Source: Escherichia phage SHEFM2K
Direction: 5' to 3' (one strand)
Sequence record: PQ390715.1
Length of the DNA: 64,000 nucleotides
Shown here: positions 55,191 to 56,577 of the stretch, one piece after another
Layout: the number at the start of each line of letters is the position of its first letter
Numbering within the stretch: position 1 is the stretch's first letter
Notes under the pieces: model-generated
The model's input: the letters and a program-made list of their open reading frames with translations, nothing else
Told to the model about the DNA's origin: nothing
Databases searched by the model: none
Position numbers and translations under genes: made by a program

Positions 55191-55721
55191 TTATTCAAGT
55201 ATAGTAATTTCAATTAAACGAATTTCGATAAACTCGTTTTCAGTTTCCCATGACGTGCCAAATTTCTTTTCAAGTTCAGATTTCACATCACTTTTAAATT
55301 TTCCCATAGTATTAGGAATAATTTGTTTGGTTAATTTATCGTAACCACAATAAAACATAGGTTTCTCCCTTCGAGATATTAGCTGAACAAAATCTTTTGG
55401 ATATGCAGGTATGTTATGCATCACTTCATGAATACACTCAGTACTTGAATCTTGTACTTTGTACATTACATTAAGTTTACCTCTGAAATTTGCGGTCATA
55501 TCAACAATAGTTCCTTTACCCGATTTAAGTAAAGTTCCATTCTTTGAATGAGAGCAATAAAATACCTCATCACCAATATTAGGATAATACAAATTAAATT
55601 CTAATTCAGATTTTACAGCCAGCCGTTTGAAACTTTCTGTACGTTTTATATAAGTTTGGTATTTGTTTATGTTCAAAAGAATATCTCTCTTAGTAAATGT
55701 GATATAACTGGCATAGTCCAT
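55191..55721 (-). CDS. hypothetical protein
   Basis: 176-aa ORF; ATG start overlaps 3' end of methyltransferase gene by 49 nt. Confidence 0.5.
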   Translation of the reverse strand: MDYASYITFTKRDILLNINKYQTYIKRTESFKRLAVKSELEFNLYYPNIGDEVFYCSHSKNGTLLKSGKGTIVDMTANFRGKLNVMYKVQDSSTECIHEVMHNIPAYPKDFVQLISRREKPMFYCGYDKLTKQIIPNTMGKFKSDVKSELEKKFGTSWETENEFIEIRLIEITILE

Positions 55722-56533
55722 CCATTCCCAAGCATTTTGTATGCTTGTGTCTTACTAGACACTTTAAAGAAATCTTCAGGAACACCCTGTAATTTACAAC
55801 ATTCTACTACACTTAAGTGTCTATAGTCAATATTTCTTTTGCCATTCTCTAATAGATATTGACGACTGATCACTGGGTCACGAAACACCAATTGTCGTCT
55901 GGATTTATTAAAGTACTGGTTACAATCACCACCTTTAAAATAGTTAGCATCTATACAGTACGAAGCGGTTCTGTCAGTGTACCAACCATCTTCAATAATA
56001 TCTTGAAGTTTAGGTGCATTGGATAATGCAGGTGGTATAAAAAGCTTATCAGTACTGTACCAGTAATATCTCTGCCTGAAGTGAGGCGTATAATGCTGGG
56101 AGTTTATCAGTACTGGCGTGATTCCTAAAATACTATTAATGTATTCTTTGAAATCTTCCTTCATTTTAACATTTTCAAACAGAAATTTCAAGTTAGGATT
56201 GAGACTTTTGATATGATCAAAAATTTCAACCATTACTAAAAATAACTGCCCACGTATATCATTTAAACCACCCTGTTTACCTGCAACTGACCAGGCTTGG
56301 CATGGGAAACCACCCATTAATAAATCTATTTTGTCCCACTCAATATCCCATTCTCTCCACTTAGTTACATCACCCAATTGGATAATATCAGGAAAGTTAG
56401 ATTGAGATTCAGCTATTGCGTACTTATCAATTTCGGATGAATAATATTTTTCAACTGGGATACCAGCATCTTGCAATGCCATATATCCCACACTCATTCC
56501 ATTAAAAAGAGAAAGTACTCGGATAGGTTTCAT
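55673..56533 (-). CDS. DNA (cytosine-5)-methyltransferase (Dcm-like, orphan)
   Basis: Motif I-like ..LSLFNGMSVGY.., motif IV GGFPCQAWS, motif VI ENV, motif X-like GNGWTMPV. Confidence 0.8.
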   Translation of the reverse strand: MKPIRVLSLFNGMSVGYMALQDAGIPVEKYYSSEIDKYAIAESQSNFPDIIQLGDVTKWREWDIEWDKIDLLMGGFPCQAWSVAGKQGGLNDIRGQLFLVMVEIFDHIKSLNPNLKFLFENVKMKEDFKEYINSILGITPVLINSQHYTPHFRQRYYWYSTDKLFIPPALSNAPKLQDIIEDGWYTDRTASYCIDANYFKGGDCNQYFNKSRRQLVFRDPVISRQYLLENGKRNIDYRHLSVVECCKLQGVPEDFFKVSSKTQAYKMLGNGWTMPVISHLLREIFF

Positions 56534-56561
56534 ATAAAATCCTTTTTATATTGTTAAGGTA

Positions 56562-56577
56562 CTATAATATATTATAG
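56562..56577. promoter_or_regulatory. 16-bp perfect palindrome upstream of methyltransferase gene (candidate operator)
   Basis: CTATAATATATTATAG is its own reverse complement; 29 nt upstream of the ATG at 56533. Confidence 0.4.

Follow-up and report, generated by a model that had tools for sequence, protein, structure and literature searches.

What does a solitary cytosine methylase do for a jumbo phage, and how is its synthesis controlled? The locus that raises this question lies in Escherichia phage SHEFM2K (sequence record PQ390715.1), of which a stretch of 64,000 nucleotides, hereafter the window, was analyzed. A sequence-only reading had described the gene as a Dcm-like orphan C5-methyltransferase preceded by a perfect 16-bp palindrome, possibly the operator of an autoregulatory or controller protein. 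The interpretation that we favor with fair confidence is that of an active orphan C5 methyltransferase, probably transcribed from its own promoter or by read-through, tuned by a hairpin at its translation start and protective for the phage. The gene and its two principal catalytic motifs are located as follows.

55673–56533, minus strand: methylase gene, encoding a 286-aa C5 cytosine DNA methyltransferase (PF00145, TIGR00675, fold model)
56297–56305, minus strand: motif IV, P77-C78-Q79, with the catalytic cysteine C78; P77 and C78 are invariant and Q79 nearly so
56168–56176, minus strand: motif VI, E120-N121-V122, all invariant columns

An orphan C5 methyltransferase with a DNMT3-like catalytic domain

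The product is an intact C5 cytosine methyltransferase. It matches PF00145 with an E value of 7.5e-38 (131 bits against a cut-off of 22) and is 100% identical to an annotated DNA cytosine methyltransferase cluster of NCBI/UniRef. Motifs I (F.G.G), IV (PCQ), VI (ENV), VIII (R.R) and X (GN) are all found, and an alignment of 52 homologs (50–86% identity) leaves F10, G12, E34, P77, C78, E120, N121, V122, R153, R155, G269 and N270 without substitution. The family assignment and the PCQ and ENV motifs of the sequence-only reading are therefore borne out. Its term "Dcm-like" is true at the superfamily level alone: the TIGR00675 superfamily model is matched above its cut-off (119 bits against 100.65), whereas the E. 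coli Dcm subfamily model, PRK10458, gives 21 bits against a cut-off of 710. E. coli Dcm (CCWGG), which is accompanied by Vsr, is thus a member of the same superfamily rather than a close counterpart, and the open reading frame (ORF) downstream of the phage gene is not Vsr-like.

The catalytic domain is DNMT3-like. With the AlphaFold model (predicted local distance difference test, pLDDT, 93.9) as query, the top Foldseek matches in the PDB are the catalytic domains of DNMT3A/B/C, at a template modelling (TM) score of ~0.8. The same proteins come out best in a PDB sequence search (E ~3e-23, residues 2–282), in which M.HaeIII and M.HhaI are weaker (~1e-17). Common to the phage enzyme and DNMT3A/3B/3C are the segments VLSLF(D/N)G, FLFENV, R.RY.W and G..W..PVI.HL, together with a short variable region. 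In contrast to DNMT3, the 286-aa phage protein has neither PWWP nor ADD domains nor a DNMT3L partner, and its motif I begins at residue 4, leaving no N-terminal extension; the variable region aligns poorly, and CpG specificity is not implied. This likeness is not new, since virome papers routinely tag such genes "DNMT3A" (by KEGG).

The family to which the enzyme belongs is very large. Its best PHROG match is phrog_116 (E=5e-60), with at least 8000 database matches spread through phages. The gene is present throughout the Rak2-like jumbo phages and, outside this clade, in phi92-like phages (51% identity), in ICP1 (44%) and in many Vibrio, Bacteroides and Cellulophaga phages. Orphan phage C5 methyltransferases of PHROG 116 share with it the fold, the motifs and the stand-alone gene; we found no characterised member in this branch, so that no target can be transferred by homology. 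The 3.5-kb stretch around the methylase is 99.6–99.9% identical to Escherichia phages IA-38, SP27, phAPEC6, slurp01, 121Q and Sharanji, and 99.1% identical to PBECO4. These close matches, like the phage of the window itself, are jumbo phages of ~350 kb of the genus Asteriusvirus (121Q/PBECO4-type), whose deposited records (dozens of genomes) already label the product DNA (cytosine) methyltransferase; the gene as such is not new.

The methylase is an orphan, here and at related loci. Among the neighbouring ORFs, searches of Pfam, PHROGs and NCBIfam returned no match to a nuclease or a helix-turn-helix (HTH) protein, and no controller-protein gene near the methylase. The position of the gene is constant from Asteriusvirus to Mimasvirus, and its flanking genes are not the same in Asteriusvirus, RaK2 and CBB/GAP32. 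At 76 related loci from bacterial genomes and metagenome-assembled genomes, the neighbours are phage-like (other methylases, SSB, a terminase-like protein, a muramidase-like protein) and include no recurrent family resembling a restriction enzyme or nuclease, which agrees with the claim that an adjacent restriction endonuclease is missing. For the same reason, an attempt to read the specificity from bacterial relatives accompanied by a known nuclease was abandoned. The gene probably encodes an active stand-alone enzyme of a very large phage and prophage family.

Hairpin, predicted promoter and palindrome ahead of the gene

The translation start of the methylase coincides with a small inverted repeat.

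56532–56551, minus strand: start hairpin ATATAAAA-AGGA-TTTTATAT(G), an 8-bp perfect stem in which the Shine-Dalgarno AGGA is the tetraloop; the last two bases of the 3′ arm are the AT of the ATG
Arm pairs found at this place: ATATAAAA/TTTTATAT; TATAA/TTATA; AAACAT/ATGTTT; ATAGAAA/TTTCTAT; TACAA/TTGTA; ATAATCA/TGATTAT; GGAAA/TTTCC

This is the longest perfect stem among the 135 ribosome-binding regions and gene starts of the window, the next being 6 bp. When the window and 17 orthologs (18 sequences) were compared by direct stem search, 16 of the 18 were found to carry a stem of at least 5 bp at the same place, built from the seven different arm pairs listed above; by comparison, a stem of at least 5 bp with a Shine-Dalgarno-like loop occurs at that position in 8% of the window's genes. 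All eight variants tested fold as hairpins, weakly (−1.5 to −5 kcal/mol). RNAalifold on a MAFFT alignment of the start regions returned no structure, the variable lengths of loop and spacer setting the arms out of register. Because the arm sequences change while the pairing persists, we read the start element kept across the relatives as an RNA structure and not a protein site. Translation would begin within this weak hairpin, with the Shine-Dalgarno exposed in the loop and the first bases of the start codon paired, and most likely the hairpin tunes, probably limits, the synthesis of the methylase. Such a covarying hairpin would be a concrete place at which to control an enzyme that may be toxic.

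Hairpins over translation start regions are familiar from the T4 genes e, soc and I-TevI. The likeness to them is a small hairpin that includes the Shine-Dalgarno or the start codon of a phage gene. Unlike the T4 type, however, the methylase stem is weak and AU-rich and leaves the Shine-Dalgarno in the loop; moreover, the predicted promoter lies upstream of the hairpin, and a hairpin-free transcript is not evident.

Upstream of the hairpin lie the palindrome and the predicted promoter.

56562–56577, strandless: 16-bp perfect palindrome CTATAATATATTATAG; in the gene direction its left half is the predicted −10 box and its right half the discriminator and start region
56571–56579, minus strand: extended −10 element TGCTATAAT, from a scan for sigma-70-type promoters
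56595–56600, minus strand: −35-like TTGGAA, with an 18-nt spacer to the −10, within the last codons (L-E) of the upstream gene

The palindrome is present as the sequence-only reading had it, in a single copy in the window and 28 nt upstream of the ATG, and it does overlap TATAAT, as part of the extended −10 box TGCTATAAT. In the gene direction the region reads TTGGAA-18 nt-TGCTATAATATATTATAG, and the promoter scan scores TTGGAA-18-TATAAT with its TG extension as sigma-70-type, a class defined here by TGnTATAAT and a −35-like hexamer at a spacing of 16–18 nt, with 10 of 12 matches; transcription would start at about 56564. The window contains 32 copies of the element TGNTATAAT where 9.8 ± 3 are expected; 25 of them are on the coding strand, and many have TTGAC-like −35 boxes and stand ahead of genes or tRNAs. 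Because this class is enriched, strand-biased and placed ahead of genes and tRNAs, the left half of the palindrome is best taken as a −10 box; the right half is not common to other promoters of the class. The symmetry itself is within chance: the window, which is AT-rich, holds two perfect palindromes of at least 16 bp, where Markov simulations (orders 1 and 3) average ~2 and yield at least one in 87–94% of runs, and near copies with up to 3 mismatches number three, itself included, against 1.7 expected. Most likely, the palindrome consists of a −10 box and an AT-rich start region that mirrors it by chance, that is, of ordinary promoter sequence. A further site, the TGCTATAAT copy at 61992, resembles the methylase upstream region; it looks like the beginning of a signal-peptide-like ORF (MKKTWKIF...), and the likeness was not used. 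The longest perfect palindrome of the window measures 20 bp and lies elsewhere (38038–38057, AAGAATTGAATTCAATTCTT).

The reading of the palindrome as an operator, bound by the methylase itself or by a controller protein that would repress the overlapped promoter, is very unlikely. It has in its favor that the sequence spans both the −10 box and the predicted transcription start, a fitting place for a repressor, that the 16-mer is perfect in the 121Q group, UE-S1 and SD-1_S14, and that Turkey5 and JNE01 retain 6-bp arms, CTATAA/TTATAG, around an altered spacer. In these last two phages, however, the whole element is degenerate with one extra base (CTATAATGAATTTATAG), BF17 shows one central mismatch, and EJP2, RaK2, CBB, GAP32, XbC2 and Kaldavass have neither promoter nor palindrome, the gene following directly after its upstream neighbour. 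The palindrome thus degrades in relatives at 80–90% identity and is absent from others, although all of these phages keep the gene, and the conservation on which the earlier operator claim depended is not found. Methylases of controller- or self-regulated restriction-modification systems, of the M.EcoRII, M.SsoII and M.MspI types, do resemble this locus in having a palindrome over the methylase promoter; in the phage there is no nuclease, no controller gene (the searches above found no HTH protein nearby) and no N-terminal HTH on the enzyme, whose motif I starts at residue 4. Finally, cytosine occurs in the palindrome only at its two ends. Poor conservation, the absent controller gene and the missing N-terminal extension leave the operator unsupported, and the promoter is the reading that we retain.

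The methylase gene lies in a one-strand block of small genes, of a kind regarded as early in the CBB paper, which also notes that RpoD-like promoters with UP elements cluster in the early region of small genes; expression of the methylase may be early as well. Transcription would come from read-through or, in this phage lineage only, from the sigma-70-type promoter TTGGAA-18-TGCTATAAT.

Target site and role of the methylase

The default interpretation of the role is protection from restriction: the most likely substrate of the enzyme is a short motif in replicating phage DNA, whose methylation would blunt host restriction. Here our interpretation coincides with the sequence-only reading and with the papers on phAPEC6, Sharanji and CBB, which in passing suggest a protective role for the methylase. 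Experimental data on the target site are absent from the searched literature on 121Q, PBECO4, RaK2, GAP32 and Asteriusvirus. CCWGG, at its expected frequency in the window, gives no signal, and CpG is mildly depleted (0.77). The hexamer AGTACT, proposed earlier as a candidate target for its over-representation, is indeed strongly enriched: 175 copies in the window against 21.7 expected from base composition (8-fold), and 149 within genes against 35 ± 5 after synonymous-codon shuffling. The enrichment holds in all three reading frames and between genes. C and G are preferred at the flanks; CAGTACTG, with 40 copies against 1.9 expected, ranks first among the 8-mers of the window.

43343–43356, 59373–59384 and 62187–62200: example AGTACT sites

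AGTACT is also enriched 6–11-fold in BF17, Turkey5, EJP2, RaK2, CBB and GAP32 (loci L001–L006), and its sites are conserved well beyond composition-matched hexamers (82% against 49% in BF17; 67% against 30% in Turkey5). Because it is enriched in all frames and between genes, throughout the clade and at conserved positions, AGTACT is a selected DNA motif, weakly linked to the methylase. We found no explanation for the enrichment, and no report of an AGTACT or CAGTACTG bias in the searched literature. The SlmA nucleoid-occlusion site GTGAGTACTCAC has an AGTACT core (PMC3020112); as a cause it was rejected, since the 12-mer GTGAGTACTCAC has 0 copies and GAGTACTC 1 copy in the window, and the flanking position at which SlmA requires a purine is poor in G. 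Chi was set aside likewise, GCTGGTGG occurring 0 times on the plus strand and twice as reverse complement. As to coding, AGT-ACT (Ser-Thr) is the commonest in-frame form of the motif (69 copies), and ARAGORN predicts, at 44547–44638 on the minus strand, a tRNA-Ser whose unusual ACT anticodon would read AGT; this tRNA may be a codon-supply adaptation to the motif. Five further tRNA genes lie at 42710–46794.

If the methylase targeted AGTACT, as AGTA-5-methylcytosine (5mC)-T, each genome would carry ~1,000 conserved methyl marks, which could protect the DNA or identify it as self to another phage factor. We give this a small chance. The enrichment in every frame and between genes and the conserved site positions fit such a target, every Rak2-like locus tested encodes the enzyme as well as the excess of sites, and the distant relative PA5oct lacks the enrichment and is not among the methylase matches listed. 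On the other hand, this co-occurrence comes from a single clade and counts as one evolutionary event. The phi92 enzyme, 51% identical, has a near-identical first part of the variable region (DR..YCIDANY.KGG..QYF.KSRRQLVF), yet phi92 contains 0 AGTACT in 21 kb against 7 expected, and ICP1 contains 1 against 4.3. Nor does deamination of 5mC leave a footprint: between the window and BF17, C/T differences by trinucleotide context range from 0.04 to 0.09 with no motif prominent, and the changes at AGTACT sites carry no C-to-T bias. Phage N6-adenine methylases are equally good candidates for the motif. In addition, A-5mC would be a substrate of McrBC, although the phages were isolated on K-12.

A second bias of the clade is the loss of GCGC. 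The window contains 0 copies against 48 expected from composition and 22 from a Markov model, and ~240 kb of the Rak2-like clade (loci L001–L006 and L009) contain 0 against ~100–210 expected; phi92, ICP1 and PA5oct have GCGC at normal levels. Nearly all palindromic hexamers with four G/C are likewise at 0 in 197 kb of the clade, with 18 expected for each, the ones escaping the purge being CACGTG, GTGCAC, CGTACG and ACGCGT. GCGC avoidance in this clade has no report in the searched literature. One could imagine from this that the methylase acts mainly on host DNA, for example at GCGC, so that the host chromosome, unlike the unmarked phage DNA, would be tagged for destruction or shut-off, and the place of the gene in a presumably early small-gene block, among likely host-takeover genes, would suit such an activity. 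We regard this as extremely improbable: the support is purely circumstantial, the variable region is unlike that of M.HhaI, whose PDB match spans residues 4–124 alone, and phi92, with a similar variable region, has normal GCGC. The purge, moreover, hits nearly all GC-rich palindromes, for which restriction avoidance or a phage nuclease suffices without any methylase.

Some relatives carry additional sequence inside the gene. In UE-S1 the methylase ORF (L009:1501–3381) encodes 626 aa and contains a ~340-aa Hint and LAGLIDADG intein exactly between P77 and the catalytic C78; the methylase ORFs of JNE01 (L093) and A4 (L092) are ~630 aa long, and the DNA matches of ph0011 and TH47 are longer by the same amount. 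The gene could thus be imagined as a decaying or dispensable passenger without a current role, interrupted by an intein in several relatives and broken by a 179-bp frameshifting deletion in Salmonella phage SD-1_S14. We consider this highly improbable. The intein is in frame, has its Hint and LAGLIDADG domains and takes the catalytic cysteine as its +1 residue, so that splicing should restore the enzyme. The catalytic residues are all invariant across the clade, the gene keeps its position from Asteriusvirus to Mimasvirus, and the start hairpin is retained by compensatory change.

An active, hairpin-tuned and protective methylase is therefore the interpretation that we keep, and several observations weigh against it. 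The SD-1_S14 deletion (L102; window positions 56127–56305) removes residues 77–136 (part of codon 136), including PCQ and ENV, in a gene that is otherwise 99.8% identical; either the methylase is dispensable on that host or the assembly is in error. The hairpin is weak in the window (−2.8 kcal/mol), its effect could be small, and P0025 and P0030, which are more distant relatives, do not have it. Both the −35 box and the A-tract fall within coding sequence, so their conservation could be a coding effect. For 121Q, PBECO4, RaK2, GAP32 and Asteriusvirus, the searched literature holds annotation-level statements only, and no expression or methylation data. Lastly, because GCGC and nearly all GC-rich 6-bp palindromes are purged, the clade leans heavily on site avoidance, which argues for a narrow role of the methylase rather than a broad shield.

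As first stated, the finding adds little: the gene was annotated, stand-alone methylases abound in phages, and promoter sequence is the best account of the palindrome. The features that deserve attention are the covarying start hairpin, the intein at the catalytic cysteine and, above all, the two genome-wide biases. AGTACT kept under site-level selection and GCGC abolished point to a DNA-recognising activity in the clade, and the methylase may or may not be part of it. Whether the enzyme is one part of a clade-wide DNA "identity code" of Rak2-like jumbo phages is doubtful, and we would put the chance of it low. In such a code, the signals would be the (C)AGTACT(G) palindromes, ~1,000 per genome and conserved in position, and the elimination of every GCGC; the C5 methylase would write, or be excluded from, one of these motifs, and phage factors would tell phage from host DNA by sequence and 5mC, much as hydroxymethylcytosine serves T4.

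Neighbouring genes and other elements of the window

Two ORFs border the methylase directly.

56586–56876, minus strand: upstream small ORF of 96 aa, PHROG 27090, a family with no assigned function; its stop codon lies 52 nt ahead of the methylase ATG
55191–55676, minus strand: downstream ORF, a lineage-restricted ORFan with a candidate TTG start and no nuclease signature

The downstream ORF has 4 homologs and no family match, and on these grounds it was rejected as a Vsr-like or 5mC-reading partner of the methylase. At 55673–55676 the sequence TTGA joins the two genes, the stop TGA of the methylase overlapping the possible TTG start of the ORFan, which suggests translational coupling between them. 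Further out, at least eight adjacent small ORFs flank the methylase on the minus strand (54181–55175 and 57191–59723) and have in common, at the C-terminus, a motif close to (E/S)ExFFQQST(I/V)xDxG; apparently they are a family of paralogs.

A last element may belong to promoters of the window. The module GGGTTGACTTCGGTCAGCCC followed by TTTT occurs in 8 copies on the minus strand against 0 expected (8199–8216, 9920–9937, 10845–10862, 15843–15860, 16928–16945, 18547–18564, 18730–18747 and 21972–21989), and at the four copies read (8199, 9920, 10845 and 21972) it is directly followed by TG(C/T)TATAAT. The module resembles a terminator hairpin, and the −35 box of the promoter that follows, TTGACT, would be part of its 5′ arm.

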